DNA of 64,000 nt from Deltaproteobacteria bacterium. GTDB taxonomy: Bacteria; Myxococcota_A; Polyangia; DRWM01; JAAZOP01. Each line of letters begins with the position of its first letter. Position 1 is the stretch's first letter. Location of the stretch: NCBI GenBank assembly GCA_016218765.1, contig JACRCZ010000056.1, positions 28,162 to 92,161 on the forward strand. The letters are read 5' to 3'. Below, piece by piece: positions 6,446-54,485 of the stretch. Below the pieces are notes generated by a model that saw only the letters and a list, made by a program, of their open reading frames with translations, did not search any database and was not told the DNA's origin. The position numbers and the translations under genes were made by a program.

Positions 6446-8167
6446 ATGCGCTTGTTGTCGTTCGCGGCCTTCGTCGCCTGGGGATGCGGACACGACTGGT
6501 CCGCCGCGGGCGACACGGGAACCGAGTCCGTTCCCGGCGATGCCGAAGACCTCGTCCCGGATGAGCCCGAAGCGGACGGGGATGCGGATGCGGACGACGA
6601 CGACGCGGCACCGACCGACGATGGGGCGCCCGACGGCGACGAGTGGGGGACGGAGTTTGACGGCGACGACGACGGCGGGGACGACGTCGACGGCGGGCAC
6701 GAGTGCGCGGTCGACTCCGACTGCGACGATGGCGACCCCTGTACGCTCGACCGTTGCGACGCGGACGCCCGGTGCGGGAACTTCGCGCAACCGGACGACA
6801 CCTCCTGCGGGACCGACTCGATCTGTTGCGCCGGGGCCTGCGTCGGTGCGCTCGACCCGGCCCACTGTCTGACCTGCGACCGGACCTGCTCGCCAGGTCC
6901 GCACGGCGCCGCGCTTTGCCTCCCGTCGGGATGCGGCCTGTCCTGCGAGCCCGGGTGGGGCCACTGCAACGCCGACTTCGTCGACGGCTGCGAGACCGCA
7001 CTGGCGGACGACGAATCGCACTGCGGCGGCTGCGGCACGGGCTGCTCCGAGGGGGAATCGTGCGTCGCCTCGGACTGCGTCGCGAGCTGGCAGCCGGTGA
7101 CCGACGCCGGCGCGCCGACGGCGCGACGCCACCACCGCGCGAGCTGGACGGGGACCGAGATGATCGTCTGGGGCGGGACGTCGGGGAGCGCGCTGCGCGA
7201 CGGCGGGCGCTACCGGCCGGCGGACGGCACGTGGACGACGATGGCGGCGGCGCCCGGGGCGATGGACGCGCGCTACCGACATGTCCAGGAGTGGACCGGA
7301 ACCGGGATGATCGTCTGGGGCGGTACGCGCAGCGGCGGTCTGGGCCTCGCTGCCGACGGCGGCGGCCTGTACGACCCGACCGGCAACACCTGGGCGATCA
7401 TCGACTCCGGCACCATCGAACGCTCCGATCCGACTTCCGTCTGGACCGGCACCGAGATGCTCGTCTGGGGCGGGCTGGTTTCCTGGCCGACGGCGGTGCG
7501 CGACGACGGCGTGCGCTACGACCCCGCGACCGACAACTGGGAGGTACTTCCGCCGATGAGCTGGAGCAGCCCCCGCTGGTCGGCCGTTGCGGTCTGGACG
7601 GGGACGACGATGCTGGTCTGGGGCGGTTGGCGGCAGACGACGGGGACCCCCAGCGCCACGGGCGATCGGTTCGATCCGGCGACCGGCGCGTGGCGGGCGA
7701 TGTCCACGACCGGCGCGCCCGCCGCGCGGGGGGCCGCCACGGCGGTGTGGACGGGGAGCGAGTTGCTCGTCTGGGGCGGCGCGACCAGCGATGCCGTGGG
7801 CTCCGCGCCGTCGGGCAGCCTGGGCGACGGCGGCGCGTACGATCCGGCGGCAGATACGTGGCGGGCCATCTCCCCCATCGGAGCGCCGAGCGCCCGGCAC
7901 CATTATTCGGCCGTGTGGACCGGCACTCGGATGATCGTCTGGGGCGGACAGCTCGCCAACGGCGATCCGGCCCTGGGTGACGGCGCCGCGTACGACCCCG
8001 CGACCGACACGTGGACGCCGATCACGATGTTCGGAGCGCCGGCCGCCCGTCGCGGACACACGGCGATCTGGACGGGCACGGAGATGGTCGTCTGGGGCGG
8101 CTCCACCGTCACGGGAAGCACGACCGTCCATTTCCGGGACGGGGGGCGCTTCACGCCGCGCGAGTAG
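6446..8167 (+). CDS. Lipoprotein with acidic linker, Cys-rich repeats and a 7-bladed Kelch-like beta-propeller
   Basis: Lipobox AWGC, CDDGDPCT-type Cys repeats, and seven copies of WTGxxMxVWGG followed by G..YDPATDxW. Confidence 0.8.
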   Translation: MRLLSFAAFVAWGCGHDWSAAGDTGTESVPGDAEDLVPDEPEADGDADADDDDAAPTDDGAPDGDEWGTEFDGDDDGGDDVDGGHECAVDSDCDDGDPCTLDRCDADARCGNFAQPDDTSCGTDSICCAGACVGALDPAHCLTCDRTCSPGPHGAALCLPSGCGLSCEPGWGHCNADFVDGCETALADDESHCGGCGTGCSEGESCVASDCVASWQPVTDAGAPTARRHHRASWTGTEMIVWGGTSGSALRDGGRYRPADGTWTTMAAAPGAMDARYRHVQEWTGTGMIVWGGTRSGGLGLAADGGGLYDPTGNTWAIIDSGTIERSDPTSVWTGTEMLVWGGLVSWPTAVRDDGVRYDPATDNWEVLPPMSWSSPRWSAVAVWTGTTMLVWGGWRQTTGTPSATGDRFDPATGAWRAMSTTGAPAARGAATAVWTGSELLVWGGATSDAVGSAPSGSLGDGGAYDPAADTWRAISPIGAPSARHHYSAVWTGTRMIVWGGQLANGDPALGDGAAYDPATDTWTPITMFGAPAARRGHTAIWTGTEMVVWGGSTVTGSTTVHFRDGGRFTPRE

Positions 8168-8197: not shown

Positions 8198-11100
8198 CTA
8201 GCCCAGATACCCCCGCCTAGCCAAACCGAAGGGCAATGGCACCGAAGGGACGGAGGCGGGCGCGGCGGAGGAGGGATCCACTTCCATCATCGCCCATGCG
8301 GTCGCGACGGAGTCGTCGAGGACGTAGCGGGCGGTGAGGGTGCGGCCGCCGATGCTGGCGCGGTGGGCCTCGGCCTCGCCGACCAGCTCGACCGTCGCCT
8401 CGCCTTCGTGCATCCCGACCACACGCACGTCGCGCGGGTCGACGGCCATGCCAACCCCCAGGGCCTTCGTGACCGCCTCCTTCAGCGTCCACAACACGGT
8501 CGCGCCGTCGCCGTTGAGCCCGACCGCGCCGGCCAACCGCGCCTCGTCGTCCGTCAACACGTGACGCACGAACGCCTCGTCCCGCGGCTCCACACGCTCG
8601 ACGTCGACTCCCACGCGGGTGCCGGAATTCCGCGGCGCCAGCACCGCGATCGCCCTCCCCGCCCCGTGCGAGATGGCCAGGAGCGGCAAGAGGTGCTCCA
8701 GGTCCGTGCGACCCGCAACGCGCACCACCGGCGCGCCGCGGGGATCCGCCGCCACGCCGATGTCCTTGTCCCGGATCGCCGCGCCCTCCGTTTCCAGCAG
8801 GAACGCCGACACCAGACGCTTGGCGGCGACTCGCCCGCCCAGCCAGTCGACGCGGCGCTTGCGCGACCCGATCTGCCGGAACAACGTCGCCTCGGCCGGC
8901 CCCAGCACCGCCGCGGCCACCACGTCCGCACTCGCCGCCAGCACGTCCAACCGCACGTCGACGCTCTCGGGCGAATCGAGGAACGACGCCGTCGCCGGCC
9001 GCGCCCCGGCCAACGGACCGGTCTCGATCAACGCCACGTCGCGCAGCCGCTCGAACACCGCGCCGTCCTCCCCGAGCAGCTCGACGTCGAAGACGTGCAC
9101 GCGCGCGCCGGTTCCGGCGGCGGTCGTTCCTTCCTTGGCCCGCACGCGGACCACGATCTCCCGGCCGGGCGCCGGCGTGTCGAGACGTTCCGCGCGGCCG
9201 ATCCCGTGCGGCAACGCATTCACGCCGTGACGGCACATCGTCCAGAGCCCGGCGGCCTGCAACCCGATCTCGCGCAGGCGCGGCCCGCAGAGGTCCCCGA
9301 ACGTCGCATCGGCCGCCGACGGCGGAATCACCGCCCGCGCGACGAGCCCCTCCGGACCCACGCCCGTCGCCGCTGTCAGCACCCGGAAGCTCGGACCGTG
9401 GAAGAAGTGCCGGTAGATCTCCGGCGCTTCGGGCCCGCGCGCTTCCAGCAGCCGCAGTTGGCCCAGCGGCCCCAGCGTCGGGTCCCCCTTGGCGCTCCTT
9501 TGCGTTCTTGGCGCACTTTGCGCGAAATCCCTTCCCCCGTCGGACATCGCCGCGGCCTTCGCCCGGAAGTGCACCGCCTCCAGGGGTCGTCCCGTCGCCG
9601 CGGTCGAGCGCGACTCGAGCACGCACTCCACGCCGTCCGCTCCGCGCTTCGCCCGCGCGACGACCGTCACCGGCCGCCCCGGATGGGCGCGAACGGGGCG
9701 CTCGAAGGACACGTCCTCGATCGCCACGTTGCCCGCGCCAAGAACGCGGCGAGCGGCCTGGGTCATCAACTCCAGCCCGACGACGCCCGGGAGGACCGGG
9801 ATGCCCTCGATCACGTGATCGAAGAGGAAGGACTGCCGTTCGGGATCGAGGACCAGCGAAACCTCGGCCTCATCGACGGGGGCCGCGAGTCCGATGCCGC
9901 CTTCGCGGAGTTCGGCGGCAGAACCGTCGAACGACTTCGGGGCCGGAAGCGAAGGAACCATGACCGCGGGCGCAGCCGCGACGCTCGCCGCCTCGCCGGC
10001 GATACGGGGTTTCGCGAGCGCGCCGAGCTTCCCGCAGACGACGACCTCGCCGATGGCGCCGCGGTCGATGAGGTCAGCGGCGAGGGGCACGCCGATCTCC
10101 GGCGGCAGGAGGTCGACGCCGCGCTCGACGAGGATGGTGCGCATGCCGCCCGCGACGGCCATGCCGATGCCGTCCCAGCCGGTCCAATCGATGGCCAGCG
10201 CGCGCGTCGCCGGGTCGTTCGAGGTGATCTCCCACGCCAGGCGCGCGACGGTCTCGTTGGCCGCGGAGTAGTCGATCTGGCCTTCGTTGCCGAAGCGCCC
10301 GGCGACCGAGCCGAAGACCGTGAAGAACGCGGGGCGGTCGTCGCGCACCAGGGCCCACAGGTGCAGGGCGCCCAGCGCCTTGCCGCGAAAGACGCGGTCG
10401 AAGCCGGCCGCGGTCTTCGAGGCCAGGGGCCGGCTCTCCTCGACCCCGGCGCCGTGGACGACGCCGCCGATGCGGCCGAAGCGCTTCCGCACGCCGTCGA
10501 GCGCCCGCGCCACCGCGTCGCGATCCGAGAGATCGCACGACTCGTAGTGGACCTCGGATCCCGCCGCGCGGTAGGCGGTCAGCGCGGTCGCGGCGCCCTT
10601 CGCCCGGCGCAGCGGGACCAACTCGGCGTCGACGCGCGCCGGCGTCACGCGCTCGCCCATCGCCGTCAGGCGCTGCCGGATCGCGGCCCGCTCGGCCTCC
10701 AGATCCAGGTTCTCGGCGCCTTCGGGCGGCCGCGCCACGATGTCGAGCACCGCCAGGCGGCAGCGGTGCCGCCGCGCCAGCTCCGCGCCGATCGCCGCGG
10801 TGATGCCGCCGGCGCCGCCGGTGAGCACGACGACCGATTCGGGACCGAGGTCGGGCGAGCCGGCCGACGGGACCTCGCGCGCCAGCGCCGGCGAGCGCCT
10901 GCCGCCCGCTACCCCGACCTCGACCATGCCGTCCGCCGTCGCGGCCTCGGCCAGAATCGCCCCGACGACATCCGCGGCGCCGTTCAGCGGCGACACGTCG
11001 ACAGCCTTCACGACCGCCTGCGCCCACTCGCGCGCCACGGCCTTGGTGGCGCCGGTGAGCGCGGCGCCCAGCGTCGAGCCGGCCGGAGCGGTGCCGATGC

Positions 11101-14100
11101 CGCACGAGCCGCCGTTGCGGGTCAAGGTGATCAGGAACGAGTCGGCCACGGGCGTCCCGGCCTGCCGCTCGAAGGTCCGCGCCAGGTGGAAGAGGAACCG
11201 CACGCGGCCGTGGACTTGCGCCGCGTCGTCACCGCACGCGTCGGTGATGCCCAGCAGGTTGACGATGCCGAGCGGGCGGCCGACGGCGAAGCAGAAGCCG
11301 AGCGCCGACTCGAGGTCGGCCTCGAGATCGGCGCCGTCGCCCGCCGGCTCCGCGTAACGCAGCGGCAGCACCCGCACGCCCCGGCGCCGCAGCTCGGATT
11401 CGAGCTCACGGGCCCGCGGGCCGCCGTCGCTCGCCACGACCAGCGCACGACCCGCGACGGACGCGGCCTCCGCGGAAGGCGGAAGTCCCTCGTTGGCGAC
11501 ACCCCAGACGCGGAAGCGGCCTCCGCCGAGGTCGCCGAAGTCGATGCTCGTCGGGTCGAGGCGCTCGCCTTCCGGCGCCGGCGGGATGCTCGGCCGCACG
11601 CGGGCGGCGGGCCGCTCGGCCTTCGGCGTCGCGTCGACCGCGCGCAGGGTGTGGCGCACGACCCGGGTCTCCGGCCGCGCGTAGCCGGTCACCGCACGGA
11701 GCCAATCGGCGTGCTTCGTGGCGTCGATCCGCCCGTCGAGACGCTCCGCCACGCGGCGGTAGAGCGCGCAGGCGATCTGCGAGCCGAAGCCGGCGGCCAG
11801 GCGCAAGGCGTACTCGCACTCGTGGGGTCCGCCGCGCGAGAGGTTGAGGTCCCCCAGCTCGGGATCGGGCTCGCGCAGGTTGGGGATCGGCGGCGCCTCG
11901 CCGCGCACGAGCGCGGTGAGCGCGACGGCGTCTTCCAGGCCGGCGCCCATCGGGTGGCCGGTGTAGCCCTTGGTGTTGGTGACCAGGACGTGCCGGGCGT
12001 TTTCCCCGAAGGCGCGGCGCAGGGCGGCGATTTCGGCCGAGGCGCTGCCGCCGCGGGCCGGGGTGTAGGTCTCGTGGGACATGAACAGGCAGCGCGGCGC
12101 CAGGTCGGCGCGGGCGAGGCCGTGGAGGCGCTCCGCGTCCGCGACGAGCGCCTCGACCACCTCGGCCACGTGGCCGCTGTCCAGCCGCAGGGCATGGCCG
12201 CCGCTGTTGGCGCACCGGGTCGCCAGGACTTCCGCGAGCGGCATCACGCCGCGCTCGGCGCACGCCTCGGCGGTCTCGACGATGAGCGCGACGGCGCCCA
12301 TGCCGAGCAGCATGCCGTGGCGCCGCCGGTCGAACGGCAGCGCCGCGTCCTCGGCGCGCTCGTCCGTCGCCGCGGCGCCGGTGGCCAGGAACCCGGTGCC
12401 AATCCACGGCAGCAGCGCGTCGCTCGTCACGTCGTCGGCGCCGACGACGATCACCCGGCGGCAGCGGCCCGAGCGGATCCAGTCCTCGGCGGTCGCCAGC
12501 GCGAGCGACGTCGACGCGCACGCGGCATTGACCTGGAGGTTGGGGCCGGTGGCGCCGGTGAACGCGGCCACCTGGGCGTGCCCCAGGGCGAGCACCTCGA
12601 GCAGGAACGTCCGCGAGAACGACTTGGACGCGCCGCCGTTGTTGCGGGAGGCGATCTCGGAGGCGAAGCGGTCGTAGCCCGGGAAGGCCGAGGCGAAGAT
12701 CACTCCGGTCTCGCGGCCGACCGCCTCGGGCAGGCGCCAGCCGGCGCCGACGAACCCGCCGTTGCGCGTCGGCCGCTTCGTCTCGACCAGCGGCAGCCCG
12801 GCCTCGCGCAGCGCCTCGACCGTCGCCGCCAGCGCGAGGCGCGAGGTGGCGTCCAGGGTGCCGTCCAGCTCTTCCGAGGCGCCGTAGTCCTCGACCAGCC
12901 GCACGTCGTGGCCACGCGCGGCGAGCCGGATCACGTCGTCCGTGCTCTTCACCGCCGTCATCGTGGGCTCGCCGTCGGCGGCCTTGACGACGCGGACGAC
13001 GTTCTTGCGCACCATCTCCTGGCGCAGCCCTTCCGGGACCGAGTCGAACAGGGTCTCGCCGCGCAGCAGGCGATCGAAGTGGGCGGGGTCGAACGGGTCG
13101 TCGACGCCGGGCAGGCCGAGCGCGAGGCCGCTCACCACGACGGGAGTGCGGGAGGGGCGCTCGACGACGACGGGGGGCGGTGGGACGGAAGGGGGGCGGG
13201 AGGGAGTCGTCGGTTTTCGGTTTTCGGTTTTCGGTTCCGGGCCGGACCCCGCATCCGAACCGCGGGCTTCAGCCCGCGGCTGAGCCGAGGCACCCAGGCG
13301 CAGGTCCAAGCCCGGGGAGCGGGCGTCGAGGTCGACGGGGACGCCGTCGGCCCAGAGGGTCGCCAGGCCCTCGAGCAGCGAGCGGATCTCGCCGCGCTTG
13401 GGGAGGTTGGTCGTGCAGGCCGTCACGCAGCGTCCGGCGAGGATCTCGCCGACGAAGCCGCTGAGGGCCTTCTTCGGGCCGCACTCGACGAAGACCGCGA
13501 CGCCGGACGCCGCCATGCGCTCGACGATGCCGATGAACTCGACCGGCGAGGCGACCTGGCGCGCGAGCAGCGTTCGGATGCCGTCCGGGGAGTCCGGGTA
13601 CGGCTCGGCGTTGACGTTGGAGTAGACGGGGATGGCCGGCGCGTGCACGTCGGCCGCGTCGAGCACCTGGCGCAGCGGGACGGAGGCGGATGCGACGACG
13701 GCGGAATGGAAGGCGTGGGAGACCGGCAGGCGCGTGCACGGCACACCGCGGGCGTCGAACAGCGCCATCGCCTTGCGCACGGCGTCGGTGGCGCCGGCGA
13801 TGATGGTCTGGGAGGGCGAGTTCTTGTTCGCGGGGAGGACGTAGCCCTCGACCTGCCGCAGGACGTCCTCGACGACGCCGAGCGGCGCGGCGACGGCGGC
13901 CATCCAGCCCGGGTCGCCGCCGGCCGGCGTCGCGGCGGCCATCTCGCGGCCGCGCGCCGCGACGATGCGCAGCGCCTCGTCGACGCGCAGCACGCCGCCG
14001 ACGACGCACGCGGCATACTCGCCCAGCGAATGTCCGGCCACCACGTCCGGCCGCAATCCGTGCTCGCCGAGCAGCCGGGCGATGGCGACGTCGCAGGCGA

Positions 14101-17074
14101 CCATGGCGGGCTGCGTGATGGTGGTCATGCGCAGCGCCGCTTCCGCATCGCCGCCGGCCTCGCCGAAACCCGCACCGAAGATGAAGCTCGTCAGCGGCCG
14201 GCCAAGGATCGGCTCCATCACGGCGTCGGCCTCGCGCAGCGTCTCCGCCACGACCGGATGCCGGCGCGCCAGTTTTTCGCACATCCCGACCCACTGCGAG
14301 CCCTGGCCGGGGAAGAGCCACGCGGTCTTTCCCTCGGGCCGCGGCTGCTGCGGCCCGCGCAGGAAGACTCCCTTCGTGGCGAGGGTGGTGCGGCCCTTGC
14401 CGCCGAGGAGCGCGTCCATGGCCAGGCGGGCCTGGCCCGCCAGCTCGCCGATCGAGGTCGCGGCGAGCGCCGCGCGCCACGGCATTTCCTGTCCGGCGCG
14501 CCGTGAAGCCGCGAGGCGGCGGAGCTCGCCGCCCGCATCGCACTCGGCGGCCAGCGACCGCAAGGCATACGCCAGCGACTGCTCGTCGACTCCGCCCAGC
14601 GTGACGACCTCGCCGTCGAGCTCGGGCGTGGGGGGCGCCGCCGGAACGACCGCGGCCGCACTCGCCGCCGTCGCCGACGGCGCCGTCGGGTCCCCCGTAT
14701 CCGAACCGCGGGCTTCAGCCCGCGGCTGAACGTCGGCGGAAGCCGCACCCTGGCCCCGAAGGGACTCGGCGACTGTGCCGCCGAGCAGGGTGCGGTTCGG
14801 TTCGCGGAGGGTCGGGGCCGCCGCCGACGTCGCCGCGCCCACGGTCTCGATGCGTTTCATGACGTAGTCGGCGAGGTCGCGGAGGCGCGGGTAGTCGGCC
14901 AGGCGGAACTTCTCGTCCCGCGGCAGCCCGTAGCGCTCGCGCACGGAGGCGAGGATCTCGGCCTGCTTCACCGTATCGACGCCGAGGTCCGCTTCCAGCT
15001 CGAAGTCCAGCTCGATCTCCGCCGCGTCGTACCCGGTCTTCGCGCACAGCACGTCGATCAGCGCCTTGGCCACGTCGTCCGGGTGGTGGCCGGGCGTGGG
15101 CGCCGCAGGCGCGCTCGCCGGTGCCGCCACGGGCGTCGCGGGCTGCGTGGCGCCCCTACCGGTCAATTCCACCGGCGTGGTCGGGGTCGGGGACACCGGA
15201 GGAGGGGCCGGCGTCGCGGGCGCACTCGCCGTCGGCGCCGAGGGCGCCGCCGGCTGCGTGGCGCCCCTACCGGTCGACTCGTGCGCCGTCGCGGTTCCGC
15301 CCACGGTTTCGATGCGCCGGACGACGTAGTCGGCGAGGTCGCGGAGGCGCGGGTAGTCGGCGAGGCGGAACTTCTCGTCCCGCGGCAGGCCGTAGCGCTC
15401 GCGCACGGAGGCAAGGATCTCCGCCTGCTTGACGGTGTCGACGCCGAGGTCCGCTTCCAGCTCGAAGTCCAGCTCGATCTCGGCCGCGTCGTATCCGGTC
15501 TTCGCGCAGAGCACGTCGACCAGCGCCTTTTCCACCTGGGCACGATCCACCATTTCCGCCTCCCCGACCGGCGCGACCGGCTTCGCCGGCTGCGCCTCTG
15601 CAACGACCACCGTCCCGCCGGGCCCCCCGGCGGACTGTTCGGGCACCGTCACGCGGCTCTTGCCGGCCGATTGCGGCCGCCATTCCTCGAGCACGACATG
15701 GAAGTTGGTTCCGCCGAATCCGAACGCGGAGACACCGGCGCGCCTCGGCTCGCCCGCCGGCGGCTCGCTCCACGGCTCGGCCTCGGTCTGGATCCGGAAC
15801 GACGACCCTTCGATCCCGCAAGCGGGGTTGTGGCTGGCGAAGTGCATGGTGGGCGGGAGCACGCGGTGGTGGAGCGCGAGGGTGGCCTTCAGCAGGCCGA
15901 CCGCTCCCGCAGCCGCCTTGAGATGCCCGATCTGCGACTTGACGGAGCCCAGGGCCACGGGGCGCGACTTGCGCCCGTCGCCCCACACCTGGTGCAGGAC
16001 GGTCGCCTCGGCGGCGTCGCCGACACGGGTCGAGGTGCCGTGCGCTTCGATGAGGTCGACCGTCGCGGGGTTCACGCCGGCCGCGGCGTACGCGCGGCGC
16101 ACGGCGCGGAGCTGGCCCTGGGGGTTCGGCGCGGTGATGCCCTTGCCGCGCCCGTCGCTGGACCCGCCGACCGCGCGGACCACGGCGTAGATGCGGTCGC
16201 CCGCCCGCTCGGCGTCCTCGAGCCTCTTGAGCACGAACACCGCACAGCCCTCGCCCATGACGAAGCCGGTGGCTCCGGCGTCGAACGGGCGGGAGCCGTC
16301 GGGGGAGAGCGCGCCGATCTTGCAGAACTTGACGTAGGTGGCGGCGCTCATGCCGGTATCGACGCCGCCGCTGACGACGACGTCGCATTCGCCCGCGCGC
16401 AGGGCGCGGCCGGCGGACGCCAGCGCGGCCAGCGAGCTGGCGCAGGCGGCGTCGACGGTGTAGTTCGAGCCGCCGAGGTCGAGGACATTGGCGACGCGGC
16501 CCGCGATCACGTTGGACAGCTCGCCCGGCATCGTGTCCTCGGTCAGCACCGGCAGCGGTCGCTTGTAGTTCGCTTCCACCGAGCGCAGCAGGCGATCGCG
16601 CAGCTCGGCCGGCAGGTCGCTCCAGCCGTCCGCGGCGACGAGCGCCCGGGCGAACTCCGGGAAGAGGACGCGCGCGGCGGTCTTCTCGCGGCGGTCGCCG
16701 CCCAGGGCATTGCCGAGGATGACGCCGCAGCGTTCGCGATCGAGCGCGTCTCCCGCGTCGCGCAGCGCGTCCTCGACGCTCGCCAGGGCGACCCGCTGCG
16801 CGTCGTCCATGGAATCGACGACGGCGGGCGGAAGGCGGAAGCGCTTGCGGTCGAAGGCGAAGCCGGTCAGGAACCCGCCAATGCGGCTGTAGGTCCGATC
16901 GGGCGCCGCGGGATCGGGCGACCAGTACAGCGCCGAGTCCCAGCGCTCGGGCGGCACCTCGCGCACGCCGTCGCGACGCGCCAGCACGCCCTCCCAGAAC
17001 TCGCCGGCGTCGAGTCCGATCGGCGTTCGCGCGCCGACGCCGACGATGGCGACGTCGAGCTTTTCCCCTGCCAC
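8198..17074 (-). CDS. Iterative type I PKS/FAS-like megasynthase: KS-ACP-ACP-AT-KS-(structural KR)-KR-DH-PPTase, about 2958 aa
   Basis: KS1: DAACASS, HGTST, KSQIGH. Two ACPs: LEADLGVDTVKQAEIL. AT: FPGQGSQ, GHSLG, HAFH. KS2: NAACAS, SHETYT, KGYTGH. KR: TGGAGGIT, YSAAN. DH: HVIEGIPVLPG. Sfp-type PPTase: GVDVE, WTLKEAVTKA. Start taken at GTG 17074. Confidence 0.93.
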   Translation of the reverse strand: MAGEKLDVAIVGVGARTPIGLDAGEFWEGVLARRDGVREVPPERWDSALYWSPDPAAPDRTYSRIGGFLTGFAFDRKRFRLPPAVVDSMDDAQRVALASVEDALRDAGDALDRERCGVILGNALGGDRREKTAARVLFPEFARALVAADGWSDLPAELRDRLLRSVEANYKRPLPVLTEDTMPGELSNVIAGRVANVLDLGGSNYTVDAACASSLAALASAGRALRAGECDVVVSGGVDTGMSAATYVKFCKIGALSPDGSRPFDAGATGFVMGEGCAVFVLKRLEDAERAGDRIYAVVRAVGGSSDGRGKGITAPNPQGQLRAVRRAYAAAGVNPATVDLIEAHGTSTRVGDAAEATVLHQVWGDGRKSRPVALGSVKSQIGHLKAAAGAVGLLKATLALHHRVLPPTMHFASHNPACGIEGSSFRIQTEAEPWSEPPAGEPRRAGVSAFGFGGTNFHVVLEEWRPQSAGKSRVTVPEQSAGGPGGTVVVAEAQPAKPVAPVGEAEMVDRAQVEKALVDVLCAKTGYDAAEIELDFELEADLGVDTVKQAEILASVRERYGLPRDEKFRLADYPRLRDLADYVVRRIETVGGTATAHESTGRGATQPAAPSAPTASAPATPAPPPVSPTPTTPVELTGRGATQPATPVAAPASAPAAPTPGHHPDDVAKALIDVLCAKTGYDAAEIELDFELEADLGVDTVKQAEILASVRERYGLPRDEKFRLADYPRLRDLADYVMKRIETVGAATSAAAPTLREPNRTLLGGTVAESLRGQGAASADVQPRAEARGSDTGDPTAPSATAASAAAVVPAAPPTPELDGEVVTLGGVDEQSLAYALRSLAAECDAGGELRRLAASRRAGQEMPWRAALAATSIGELAGQARLAMDALLGGKGRTTLATKGVFLRGPQQPRPEGKTAWLFPGQGSQWVGMCEKLARRHPVVAETLREADAVMEPILGRPLTSFIFGAGFGEAGGDAEAALRMTTITQPAMVACDVAIARLLGEHGLRPDVVAGHSLGEYAACVVGGVLRVDEALRIVAARGREMAAATPAGGDPGWMAAVAAPLGVVEDVLRQVEGYVLPANKNSPSQTIIAGATDAVRKAMALFDARGVPCTRLPVSHAFHSAVVASASVPLRQVLDAADVHAPAIPVYSNVNAEPYPDSPDGIRTLLARQVASPVEFIGIVERMAASGVAVFVECGPKKALSGFVGEILAGRCVTACTTNLPKRGEIRSLLEGLATLWADGVPVDLDARSPGLDLRLGASAQPRAEARGSDAGSGPEPKTENRKPTTPSRPPSVPPPPVVVERPSRTPVVVSGLALGLPGVDDPFDPAHFDRLLRGETLFDSVPEGLRQEMVRKNVVRVVKAADGEPTMTAVKSTDDVIRLAARGHDVRLVEDYGASEELDGTLDATSRLALAATVEALREAGLPLVETKRPTRNGGFVGAGWRLPEAVGRETGVIFASAFPGYDRFASEIASRNNGGASKSFSRTFLLEVLALGHAQVAAFTGATGPNLQVNAACASTSLALATAEDWIRSGRCRRVIVVGADDVTSDALLPWIGTGFLATGAAATDERAEDAALPFDRRRHGMLLGMGAVALIVETAEACAERGVMPLAEVLATRCANSGGHALRLDSGHVAEVVEALVADAERLHGLARADLAPRCLFMSHETYTPARGGSASAEIAALRRAFGENARHVLVTNTKGYTGHPMGAGLEDAVALTALVRGEAPPIPNLREPDPELGDLNLSRGGPHECEYALRLAAGFGSQIACALYRRVAERLDGRIDATKHADWLRAVTGYARPETRVVRHTLRAVDATPKAERPAARVRPSIPPAPEGERLDPTSIDFGDLGGGRFRVWGVANEGLPPSAEAASVAGRALVVASDGGPRARELESELRRRGVRVLPLRYAEPAGDGADLEADLESALGFCFAVGRPLGIVNLLGITDACGDDAAQVHGRVRFLFHLARTFERQAGTPVADSFLITLTRNGGSCGIGTAPAGSTLGAALTGATKAVAREWAQAVVKAVDVSPLNGAADVVGAILAEAATADGMVEVGVAGGRRSPALAREVPSAGSPDLGPESVVVLTGGAGGITAAIGAELARRHRCRLAVLDIVARPPEGAENLDLEAERAAIRQRLTAMGERVTPARVDAELVPLRRAKGAATALTAYRAAGSEVHYESCDLSDRDAVARALDGVRKRFGRIGGVVHGAGVEESRPLASKTAAGFDRVFRGKALGALHLWALVRDDRPAFFTVFGSVAGRFGNEGQIDYSAANETVARLAWEITSNDPATRALAIDWTGWDGIGMAVAGGMRTILVERGVDLLPPEIGVPLAADLIDRGAIGEVVVCGKLGALAKPRIAGEAASVAAAPAVMVPSLPAPKSFDGSAAELREGGIGLAAPVDEAEVSLVLDPERQSFLFDHVIEGIPVLPGVVGLELMTQAARRVLGAGNVAIEDVSFERPVRAHPGRPVTVVARAKRGADGVECVLESRSTAATGRPLEAVHFRAKAAAMSDGGRDFAQSAPRTQRSAKGDPTLGPLGQLRLLEARGPEAPEIYRHFFHGPSFRVLTAATGVGPEGLVARAVIPPSAADATFGDLCGPRLREIGLQAAGLWTMCRHGVNALPHGIGRAERLDTPAPGREIVVRVRAKEGTTAAGTGARVHVFDVELLGEDGAVFERLRDVALIETGPLAGARPATASFLDSPESVDVRLDVLAASADVVAAAVLGPAEATLFRQIGSRKRRVDWLGGRVAAKRLVSAFLLETEGAAIRDKDIGVAADPRGAPVVRVAGRTDLEHLLPLLAISHGAGRAIAVLAPRNSGTRVGVDVERVEPRDEAFVRHVLTDDEARLAGAVGLNGDGATVLWTLKEAVTKALGVGMAVDPRDVRVVGMHEGEATVELVGEAEAHRASIGGRTLTARYVLDDSVATAWAMMEVDPSSAAPASVPSVPLPFGLARRGYLG
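9488..9530. repeat. Imperfect 9-10 nt periodic element (cttggcgc/ctttgcg units) in frame inside the PKS DH region
   Basis: cttggcgctcctttgcgttcttggcgcactttgcgcgaaatcc, translated as DFAQSAPRTQRSAKG between the two hotdog halves. Confidence 0.55.
13211..13236. repeat. Heptamer array (CGGTTTT)3CGGTT in frame in the PKS AT-KS2 linker
   Basis: Read directly; encodes EPKTENRKP. A related array lies intergenically at 48974-49004. Confidence 0.85.
13253..13283. repeat. 31-bp palindromic element (CCGCGGGC-TTCA-GCCCGCGG hairpin), copy 1, in frame in the PKS
   Basis: atccgaaccgcgggcttcagcccgcggctga is identical to 14699-14729; both read QPRAEARGSD. Confidence 0.9.
14699..14729. repeat. 31-bp palindromic element, copy 2, in frame in the PKS ACP2-AT linker
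   Basis: Identical to 13253-13283. Confidence 0.9.
15141..15164. repeat. 24-bp GTAG-type REP-like element, copy 1, in frame in the ACP1-ACP2 linker
   Basis: ggctgcgtggcgcccctaccggtc (minus strand GACCG-GTAG-GGGCGCCACGCAGCC) is identical to 15252-15275; reads TGRGATQP. Confidence 0.8.
15252..15275. repeat. 24-bp GTAG-type REP-like element, copy 2
   Basis: Identical to 15141-15164. Confidence 0.8.
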
Positions 17075-17160
17075 TTCACACCCCCGACGACTTCTCCGTT
17101 GCGGCAAGCCGGAAACGGCCGGCCGGACGGCCCGCGGGACGAGCCGTCGCGCCGCGACCA

Positions 17161-17176
17161 AGCGAGAACGGTGCCA
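17161..17176 (-). promoter_or_regulatory. Candidate sigma54 (-24/-12) promoter for the PKS
   Basis: Minus strand TGGCAC-CGTTC-TCGCT has exact GG-N10-GC spacing and lies about 85 nt upstream of the GTG. Confidence 0.4.
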
Positions 17177-17346
17177 CACGGGGCCGGGACCGGACACCGC
17201 CGCCACCGGCCCGACCGCGACGGAATCACGAGCTTCGAAGGGCGGGCGGCCGAGGTGCGCAGCGCGCTACGCACCCGCCAAGGCACCGGGAAGGCATCCG
17301 CCGCTTCGCACGCCGCGAAGCGGCGTTCGCACCCGTTACGCCAGCC

Positions 17347-17425: not shown

Positions 17426-18196
17426 CTACGCCAGACGCCGGCGCACCACCTCGGCCAGGAGCAGCACGAGGACGACGACGAGGAACGGGCGGATGACGCG
17501 TTCGCCCCGGCGCAACGCGACCATCGACCCGAGCTGATTGCCGGCGATGCCCGCGGCCGCGGCGTAGAGCGCCAGCGGGAAGACCACCCGCCCGCCGGCG
17601 AGGAAGACGACGACGGCGCCGGCGTTGCTGGCCAGGTTCACGAGCCGTGCGTTGCCGGACGCCGTGAGCAAGTCGAAGCGCAGCGCCAGATGGAACCCGA
17701 TGGCCAGGAACGTCCCCGTCCCGGGACCGAAGAAGCCGTCCCACGCGCCGACGAGCAGGCCGAGCACCGCCGCCCTGAGCAGCGGCCGCCCGGCCTCGCC
17801 GCCGGCTGCGAGCGGCGCACGGCGGAGCAGCCGATCCTGGAACAGGAGCACGACGAGCGCCCCCGGGACCAGAACGAGCACGACGGTGTGTACCGTGGCC
17901 GGCGGGACGAGCAGCACGGCGCGGGCCCCGGCCGCCGAGCCAACGAGCGCGCCGGCGGCGGCGACGAGCGCGGTGCGCACGTGGATCCTGCGCGCGCGCC
18001 AGTAGCGCCACGTCGCGGTGAGGGTGCCCAGCACGGACGAGAACTTGTTGGTCGCCAGGGCAGCGTGGGGCGGCAGGCCGAGCGCGAGGTACGCGGGCAC
18101 GCTGATCAGCCCGCCCCCGCCGGCGATCGAATCGACGAACCCCGCCAGGAATACCAATCCGCACAGCGCGACGATCGCCCACAGGGAGAGGTCCAC
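17426..18196 (-). CDS. TSUP (TauE/SafE sulfite exporter) family membrane protein
   Basis: LAGFVDSIAGGGGLI, ATNK, GAWDGFFGPGTGTF and NLASN motifs, with about 8 hydrophobic segments. Confidence 0.9.
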   Translation of the reverse strand: MDLSLWAIVALCGLVFLAGFVDSIAGGGGLISVPAYLALGLPPHAALATNKFSSVLGTLTATWRYWRARRIHVRTALVAAAGALVGSAAGARAVLLVPPATVHTVVLVLVPGALVVLLFQDRLLRRAPLAAGGEAGRPLLRAAVLGLLVGAWDGFFGPGTGTFLAIGFHLALRFDLLTASGNARLVNLASNAGAVVVFLAGGRVVFPLALYAAAAGIAGNQLGSMVALRRGERVIRPFLVVVLVLLLAEVVRRRLA

Positions 18197-54469: not shown

Positions 54470-54485
54470 AGCAACGGGCGTGCCA
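54470..54485 (-). promoter_or_regulatory. sigma54 promoter TGGCACG-CCCG-TTGCT
   Basis: Exact match to the TGGCACG-N4-TTGCW consensus, about 90 nt upstream of ATG 54380. Confidence 0.65.

Follow-up and report, generated by a model that had tools for sequence, protein, structure and literature searches.

Type R secondary lipid synthases were catalogued by Shulse & Allen (2011, PLoS One 6:e20146; PMC3098273) and are defined by the order KS-MAT-CLF-ACP(3-6)-KR, i.e. a ketosynthase (KS), a malonyl acyltransferase (MAT), a second KS designated chain-length factor (CLF), three to six acyl carrier proteins (ACP) and a ketoreductase (KR), combined with a downstream gene for a phosphopantetheinyl transferase (PPTase). 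They have been noted in Koribacter, Solibacter, Elusimicrobium and Roseiflexus, in the first of these with an acetyl-CoA carboxylase (ACC) gene inside the cluster, and no product has been assigned (PMC3098273). Here, we analyze a gene for a two-KS megasynthase on the reverse strand of a 64,000-nucleotide stretch (the window, G+C ~74%) of contig JACRCZ010000056.1 from Deltaproteobacteria bacterium assembly GCA_016218765.1. Judged by sequence, the megasynthase falls into a permuted sub-clade within Type R, and we regard it, with somewhat more confidence than doubt, as an iterative, self-activating PfaA-like type I synthase that resembles a fatty acid synthase (FAS) and serves the formation of a secondary lipid.

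Domain order and family affiliation

The megasynthase open reading frame (ORF) occupies 8198..17206 on the minus strand and encodes 3002 residues when counted from the first GTG. In the database copy, the protein begins 44 residues further on, at GTG 17074, and comprises 2958 residues. We consider this GTG, already proposed in the original prediction, as the real start because a conserved sigma-54-type promoter at 17161-17176 is situated downstream of GTG 17206. Residue numbers given here refer to the 3002-residue translation, and subtraction of 44 yields the numbering of the 2958-residue protein. The Pfam domain map revealed a KS1-ACP-ACP-AT-KS2-KR-DH-PPTase order (AT, acyltransferase; DH, dehydratase) in this single ORF, exactly as predicted:

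8198..17074, minus strand: megasynthase gene, 2958 residues from GTG 17074, a start backed by the conserved promoter position; stop codon 8198-8200
15659..17056, minus strand: KS1, ketosynthase of the PfaA/type I polyketide synthase (PKS) type (Pfam, residues 51-516; PfaA model positions 8-469), with C255, H389, K423 and H428
15323..15526, minus strand: ACP 1 (Pfam PP-binding, residues 561-628), with Thr591 (codon 15434-15436) at the phosphopantetheine-Ser position
14861..15064, minus strand: ACP 2 (residues ~715-782), a repeat of ACP 1, with Thr745 (codon 14972-14974)
14321..14656, minus strand: putative KS-to-AT linker domain after the ACP pair, proposed from the pattern EVVTLGG..SLAYALRSL..WRAALAA..GVFLRGP before FPGQGSQ
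13475..14320, minus strand: malonyl-type AT (residues 963-1244), with S1060 in GHSLGE and HAFH at 1164-1167; FabD TIGR00128, 208 bits
11690..13144, minus strand: KS2, FabF-type ketosynthase with an N-terminal extension (residues ~1355-1839), with C1563 (NAACAS), H1711 (SHETYT), K1746 and H1751 (KGYTGH)
10847..11689, minus strand: structural (pseudo-KR) region ahead of KR, weak match to PfaA model positions 1862-1967
10172..10834, minus strand: KR (residues 2125-2345), with S2300, Y2313 and N2317
9020..9853, minus strand: PKS-type DH (residues 2452-2729), with H2464 in HxxxGxxxxP and E2646-xxx-Q2650 (REIGLQ)
8237..8929, minus strand: fused Sfp-type PPTase (residues 2864-2952), with GVDVE at 2866-2870 and WTLKEA at 2906-2911

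Each domain was aligned against the corresponding region of the 120 top-ranking homologs (of 80 in the case of the PPTase). The catalytic residues are invariant in these alignments, except for the second and fourth positions of the PPTase motif G-x-D-x-E, and the reading frame contains no breaks. The malonyl specificity foreseen for AT is borne out by the HAFH motif and the FabD match. The acid position of DH, for which Glu had been anticipated, is occupied by E2646; Glu is present in 120 of 120 relatives, and by this comparison it is a family-wide trait and no lesion.

ACP 1 and ACP 2 constitute a 252-nt direct repeat of 90% identity. The pair seems to have been inserted between KS1 and the linker that belongs to it, rather than to reflect a reordering of the catalytic core, because a linker-like sequence pattern stands immediately before AT and after the ACPs; the region in question (~residues 850-960) has no match in Pfam or NCBIfam. 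Identical 31-bp hairpins at 13253-13283 and 14699-14729 are translated in frame as QPRAEARGSD in two linkers. The idea that these hairpins around AT are the footprint of a domain permutation was rejected, as they belong to a genome-wide element resembling repetitive extragenic palindromic sequences that recurs at least 60 times at four or fewer mismatches; the gene of the ortholog L001 has three copies, at other linker positions.

Homology searches returned thousands of proteins of 2,400-4,000 residues that share the Pfam set of the megasynthase. When the query domains were placed by BLAST on the best 120 homologs, the KS1...AT...KS2...KR-DH(-PPTase) order proved to be fixed, while the ACP block shifts between at least five arrangements:

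KS1-AT-KS2-ACP4-6-KR-DH, 39 of 120: PPTase separate; Chloroflexi, Leptospiraceae and others
KS1-AT-ACP-KS2-ACP2-4-KR-DH-PPT, 47 of 120: 46 with a ~260-400-aa N-terminal extension, one without fused PPTase
[ER]-KS1-AT-ACP1-4-KS2-KR-DH-PPT (ER, enoyl reductase), 20 of 120: Bradymonadia; nine with a ~700-aa N-terminal extension
KS1-ACP1-3-AT-KS2-KR-DH-PPT, 8 of 120: the query clade, one of them a fragment without KS1
N-extension-KS1-ACP-AT-(ACP)-KS2-(ACP)-KR-DH-PPT, 4 of 120: three with a ~700-aa extension, one shorter
KS1-AT-KS2-ACP-KR-DH with fused PPTase, the remaining three: two with a ~700-aa extension, the third being P0012

The first of these arrangements, with its separate PPTase, matches the Type R definition exactly. 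The PPTase is fused C-terminally in the query and in 80 of its 120 closest relatives. In Lujinxingia, the ~700-aa N-terminal extension holds a fused ER of the PfaD type. The ~260-400-residue extension before KS1, present in P0024 and 45 other relatives within the largest clade, is conserved and has no Pfam match.

A maximum-likelihood tree was calculated from five concatenated domains (1781 columns; the named Type R references from Koribacter and Roseiflexus are not part of it). The query clade is monophyletic (support 1.0) with P0012 as its sister (1.0), and both together are sister to the clade of KS-AT-KS-ACPn-KR-DH Type R proteins from Chloroflexi and others (0.94); the tie to the named Type R sequences consists of matching architecture and host phyla. 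The remaining proteins with ACPs before AT fall into the other major clade of the tree, and this order therefore arose at least twice. Thus, the megasynthase combines the domain content of Type R (KS, MAT, second KS/'CLF', tandem ACPs and KR in one ORF) and a dedicated, linked PPTase, here as a C-terminal fusion, with affiliation as a sister clade, but it departs from the KS-MAT-CLF-ACP(3-6)-KR order in that the ACPs precede AT and number only two. The layout had been judged unusual; this holds insofar as we found no characterised match, and has to be qualified insofar as it is a permuted sub-clade of a type catalogued in 2011.

The family is common, with members in hundreds of species: an even sample of 301 genomes of the phylum includes 80 (59 of 209 genera) that encode a KS2-type domain, and such domains also occur in Chloroflexi, Acidobacteriota and others. 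One homolog from an Acidobacteriota metagenome-assembled genome (locus L003; G004:C135:54076-59871; 3256 aa) gives three separate KS-like matches and is possibly a three-KS variant.

The second ketosynthase and the threonine carrier domains

The Cys-His-Lys-His set of KS2 is invariant in 120 of 120 relatives. In sequence, KS2 is closest to FabF (PDB 1j3n, 8e-25; TIGR03150, 132 bits), and no type I PKS, Pks13 or PfaC is found among the best 60 matches listed in the PDB search. An AlphaFold model of KS2 was built on a nine-sequence alignment of the window and locus sequences (predicted local distance difference test, pLDDT, 74.8; predicted template modelling score, pTM, 0.82), and the top 50 PDB structures matched by Foldseek are without exception type II ketosynthases, nearly all of the FabF/KAS II kind, at a target TM of ~0.8. 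For KS1, the PDB search yields ketosynthases of type I PKS, Pks13 at 258 bits and 6riw, the KS-CLF of PfaC, at 240 bits. Homology of KS2 with the CLF of PfaC was considered and rejected, since 6riw resides among the KS1 matches and is not in the top 60 for KS2. In agreement with the original prediction, KS2 is, on sequence grounds, not a chain-length factor, because its catalytic residues are present and invariant across the alignments, and both KS domains are predicted to be active, KS2 with a modelled FabF fold.

A different role had been envisaged for KS2 originally, namely head-to-head coupling or release. In such a scheme KS1 would elongate, while KS2 would carry out a separate Claisen coupling or release step similar to Pks13 or OleA and thereby give rise to a branched or very long lipid. 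A catalytically intact and strongly constrained KS2 and the lack of a thioesterase (TE) for release would be compatible with this, but both sequence and modelled fold place KS2 with FabF and not with Pks13 or OleA, and Pks13 shows up only among the matches of KS1. Likewise, the PccB/AccD-type carboxyltransferase encoded beside the synthase in relatives could in principle play the part that AccD4 has with Pks13 and carboxylate a long acyl chain, yet neither a FadD32-like nor a TE partner is present among the genes flanking the synthase in the window and in the relatives' loci, and the Pks13 model NF040607 reaches 416 bits against a cut-off of 2100, with the score stemming from KS1 and not from KS2. 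We consider a coupling function of KS2 quite improbable.

Both ACPs read LEADLGVDTVKQAE, with Thr in place of the expected phosphopantetheine Ser, such that Thr591 and Thr745 stand where PF00550 has the conserved Ser of (D/H)S(L/I). Absence of this Ser from both ACPs could point at a decaying, non-functional relic, an explanation that is hardly credible: Thr is found at the Ser position of 344 ACP units, which come from every clade of the family, and sits inside an almost invariant 14-residue motif, LEADLG[IV]DTVKQAE; catalytic residues and reading frame are intact; and the ortholog in the sister genome (L001) shares 87% protein identity with the megasynthase (66% for the L008 locus). The Thr is likely the attachment site of phosphopantetheine, because a PPTase is fused or linked and the catalytic domains are intact.

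Partner genes, regulation and fatty acid synthesis in Bradymonadaceae

As stated in the original prediction, the megasynthase is self-contained. Neither the gene nor its neighbours encode an ER or a TE according to Pfam and neighbour annotation, and no ACC or acyl-CoA dehydrogenase (ACAD) gene is linked to it in the window. Partner genes accompany the synthase gene in relatives. Genes for biotin carboxyl carrier protein (BCCP) and carboxyltransferase follow directly after it in Bradymonas sediminis and Persicimonas caeni, and an operon in Chloroploca comprises genes for ACAD, synthase, PPTase, carboxyltransferase, biotin carboxylase and BCCP. The ACAD proteins (545-613 aa) encoded next to the synthase in Chloroploca and in L002, a clade-A locus, align along their entire length with 53% identity; they are orthologs and are likely to act as redox partner of the synthase. 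Overall, ER in relatives takes the form of a fused PfaD-type domain, an adjoining ACAD or a FabK-like gene elsewhere. A hidden ER was looked for in the lineage and rejected: no PfaD/FabK-type ER exceeds 37 bits and no ortholog of the partner ACAD is present in the source or sister genome, and no FabI match in this search exceeds 28% identity. A PfaC-like gene was likewise not found in either genome.

Enediyne PksE of the SgcE/CalE8 type is an iterative, self-phosphopantetheinylating KS-AT-ACP-KR-DH-PPTase without ER. The megasynthase could by analogy be a PksE-like synthase of a conjugated polyene, perhaps a pigment or signalling lipid. The two share the C-terminal KR-DH-PPTase order, and the lack of a PfaD/FabK-type ER and partner ACAD in source and sister genome as well as a regulated sigma-54 promoter would fit such a specialised product. 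PksE has a single KS, however, and enediyne cassette genes or a TE are not found nearby; moreover, relatives of the megasynthase normally have an ER partner, and a housekeeping enoyl reductase may act in trans. A polyene synthase appears unlikely to us.

The following features are located upstream of the megasynthase gene:

17161..17176, minus strand: sigma-54-type promoter TGGCAC-N5-TCGCT, TGGCACCGTTCTCGCT, ~85 nt upstream of the start codon
17254..17333, minus strand: pair of conserved palindromic blocks at 17302-17333 and 17254-17275, candidate sites for an enhancer-binding protein
17426..18196, minus strand: TauE/TSUP membrane transporter, same strand as the megasynthase, kept in three of four clade-A loci examined

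The sigma-54-type pattern has two matches in the 64-kb window versus 0.11 expected, and a promoter scan revealed no sigma-70 promoter upstream of the megasynthase gene. A three-way alignment of upstream regions showed that L001 and L008, the orthologous loci, have retained the promoter and both palindromic blocks. The other exact match in the window lies at 54470-54485 on the minus strand (TGGCACGCCCGTTGCT). In Persicimonas caeni, a gene for an FHA and sigma-54-activator protein (L007, 8027-9418, minus strand) is located divergently upstream of the synthase gene, which hints that sigma-54 control may reach beyond the query clade. The neighbours named in the original prediction were both recovered: besides the transporter, a Kelch protein gene (6446-8167, plus strand) is convergent with the megasynthase gene. 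TauE is the only neighbour conserved in the window and its two nearest orthologous loci; farther away, genes for a thymidine kinase and a disintegrin-repeat lipoprotein are found.

The sister genome encodes a canonical FabF (532.8 bits) adjoining AcpP (71.9 bits), and as it carries this ordinary type II fatty acid synthase (FAS II), the megasynthase would be a secondary system in the lineage. The conserved sigma-54-type promoter together with the FabF-AcpP pair of the sister genome argues for a synthase of a secondary lipid that is probably expressed conditionally. The contig with FabF-AcpP has no counterpart in the source assembly, in which canonical FabF, AcpP, FabH and FabI are missing. This absence was rejected as evidence that the megasynthase is the primary FAS of the organism, as the source genome is only 79.6% complete and the sister genome has FabF-AcpP. 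Outside the window, source contigs C61 (~15-55 kb) and C86 (~34-40 kb) contain two clusters of stand-alone genes for FabF-like KS and for CLF-, FabG-, FabZ- and ACP-like proteins. None of these reaches the FabF or AcpP equivalog cut-off, and the clusters resemble secondary type II systems of the aryl-polyene or another type.

A primary role is suggested for other members of the family. All Bradymonabacteria have been reported to lack FabB/F and FabI/L (Mu et al., 2020; PMC7460792). In the whole genome of B. sediminis, the FabF model matches nothing but KS1 and KS2 of the two-KS synthase; FabH was not detected (best 28.6 bits), no AcpP lies above the cut-off (best 28 bits), and a single FabK-like flavoprotein is present below the cut-off (TIGR03151, 155 bits). 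In the family that contains B. sediminis (Bradymonadaceae), the synthase is encoded in all 22 genomes drawn from the even 301-genome phylum sample, and FabF scores above the cut-off in none of them; this absence was checked at a lenient threshold, at which the KS domains of 18 of the 22 genomes reside only within large ORFs, nearly all longer than 1,000 aa. Pure cultures of Bradymonadaceae on marine broth contain mainly iso-C15:0, C17:0/iso-C17:0 and iso-C17:1 fatty acids (PMC7188933).

Some family members thus probably act as true fatty acid synthases, since B. sediminis lacks any other KS as well as FabH and AcpP and yet makes iso-C15/C17 acids. More specifically, genomes and published profiles suggest that in Bradymonadaceae the two-KS synthase, ACC and the FabK-like reductase together are probably the fatty acid synthase. 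As FabH is lacking in B. sediminis, one KS (or AT) would have to accept a branched primer. The same organism bears on the coupling function discussed above for KS2: B. sediminis has only these two KS and makes ordinary C15-C17 iso acids, which fits two KS that elongate or prime better than it fits coupling. Co-occurrence of FabF and the synthase across the phylum was rejected as a clean test, because most genomes without FabF also lack the synthase (FabF goes unmatched at E <= 1e-130 in 126 of 301, ~90 of them without a two-KS synthase); of this survey, only the Bradymonadaceae result is used here. The gene for the FabK-like reductase of B. sediminis lies beside a phosphoinositol-dihydroceramide-synthase-like gene and a gene for an HpnN-like resistance-nodulation-division transporter in a small lipid-related neighbourhood (L012, 19-3608).

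For the megasynthase itself, we propose the following working as a secondary lipid synthase. The fused PPTase would load phosphopantetheine on both ACPs, with the conserved Thr as acceptor, and the single AT would load malonyl units. KS1 and KS2 may both condense and share the cycles, either as priming versus elongation or as short versus long chains, a division that may be likened to KS_A and KS_C of polyunsaturated fatty acid (PUFA) synthases. KR and DH would process each beta-carbon, and enoyl reduction, if any, would be left to a separate enzyme. As KR and DH are present and no ER was detected, double bonds or hydroxyls may persist in the product; it would be a fatty-acyl-type chain, probably unsaturated or hydroxylated, formed under sigma-54 control beside FAS II. 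AT or an acyltransferase acting in trans are candidates for release without TE.

Several points weigh against this reading. The literature yielded neither a characterised member of the family nor a characterised synthase of like architecture, and it is for this reason that the role of KS2 and the product are inferred; by the same token, no synthase with a known product turned up that would have explained the layout away. To our knowledge, phosphopantetheinylation of Thr has never been shown, and we found no report of Thr-linked phosphopantetheine. A saturated product would need another reductase, as no ER was found in the source or sister genome, and absences in a source genome that is 79.6% complete are weak evidence. 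Finally, the argument from Bradymonadaceae is one of comparative genomics and fatty-acid profiles, and their clade is 37-39% identical to the query over ~55% of its length.

A broader interpretation is possible, which we put forward tentatively and would not yet rely on: the two-KS family may constitute a third kind of bacterial FAS, a self-activating single chain derived from PfaA with Thr-held phosphopantetheine, that fully replaced the FabH/FabF/AcpP-based FAS II in Bradymonadaceae, with the query as an ER-less offshoot under sigma-54 control that makes a specialised unsaturated or hydroxylated lipid. The mobility of the ACP block would then indicate that the order of domains does not matter to such an iterative enzyme. 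If the proposed role in Bradymonadaceae is true, it explains the reported "missing fatty-acid synthesis" of these cultured predatory bacteria, and the product of the enzyme could be read from a culture. The evidence from this group that a Type R-like family can replace FAS II is new here. The query gene is compact, with its own PPTase, two ACPs and no partners, and is therefore convenient for addressing the roles of the KS domains and of Thr.

Comparison with named systems

The best NCBIfam match of the megasynthase is PfaA (TIGR02813), with 900.6 bits below the curated cut-off of 1010.1. Features that resemble PfaA of the pfaABCDE system are KS1, AT, the tandem arrangement of ACPs and a KR-DH tail, whereas the score below the cut-off, the additional FabF-type KS and ACPs with Thr instead of Ser set the query apart. 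The PfaB, PfaC and PfaD partners that accompany PfaA are not encoded anywhere in the assembly, nor are a PfaC-like KS-CLF or a PfaD-type ER. PUFA synthases differ furthermore in their FabA-type DH domains, which are absent from the query, such that cis-double-bond chemistry is not expected.

PksE resembles the query in its C-terminal KR-DH-PPTase and in the lack of ER, a likeness drawn from its description and not from a PksE sequence. A single KS and an enediyne cassette with TE and E3-E5 nearby, by which PksE is recognized, are not found here; the query instead has a second KS and two ACPs before AT, and its neighbours include neither enediyne cassette nor thioesterase genes. The Pks13 type (ACP-KS-AT-ACP-TE with FadD32/AccD4) does not apply either, as the query has no TE.

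Two-KS synthases from the Bradymonadia members Bradymonas sediminis, Persicimonas caeni, Lujinxingia and Microvenator, whose annotation says no more than 'type I polyketide synthase' or 'SDR family oxidoreductase', belong to the same family as the query and share its domain set, fused PPTase and Thr-containing ACPs. Their identity to the query is 37-39%, with the best local alignment covering ~55% of it, and they differ in their [ER]-KS1-AT-ACP3-KS2-KR-DH-PPTase order.

Type R is, like the query, a PfaA-like single protein with KS, malonyl-AT, second KS, tandem ACPs and KR and has a dedicated PPTase. In the Type R relatives mapped here, DH is present too, and the ACP motif with Thr and the signature motifs of KS2 agree with those of the query. 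In contrast, Type R has three to six ACPs after KS2 where the query has two before AT, and its PPTase is encoded by a separate downstream gene where that of the query is fused; the query also lacks a linked ACC or ACAD gene and has its own sigma-54-type promoter. Particular to the query copy, then, are a single gene without ER, ACAD or ACC partners, the ACPs placed before AT, the fused PPTase and sigma-54 control.

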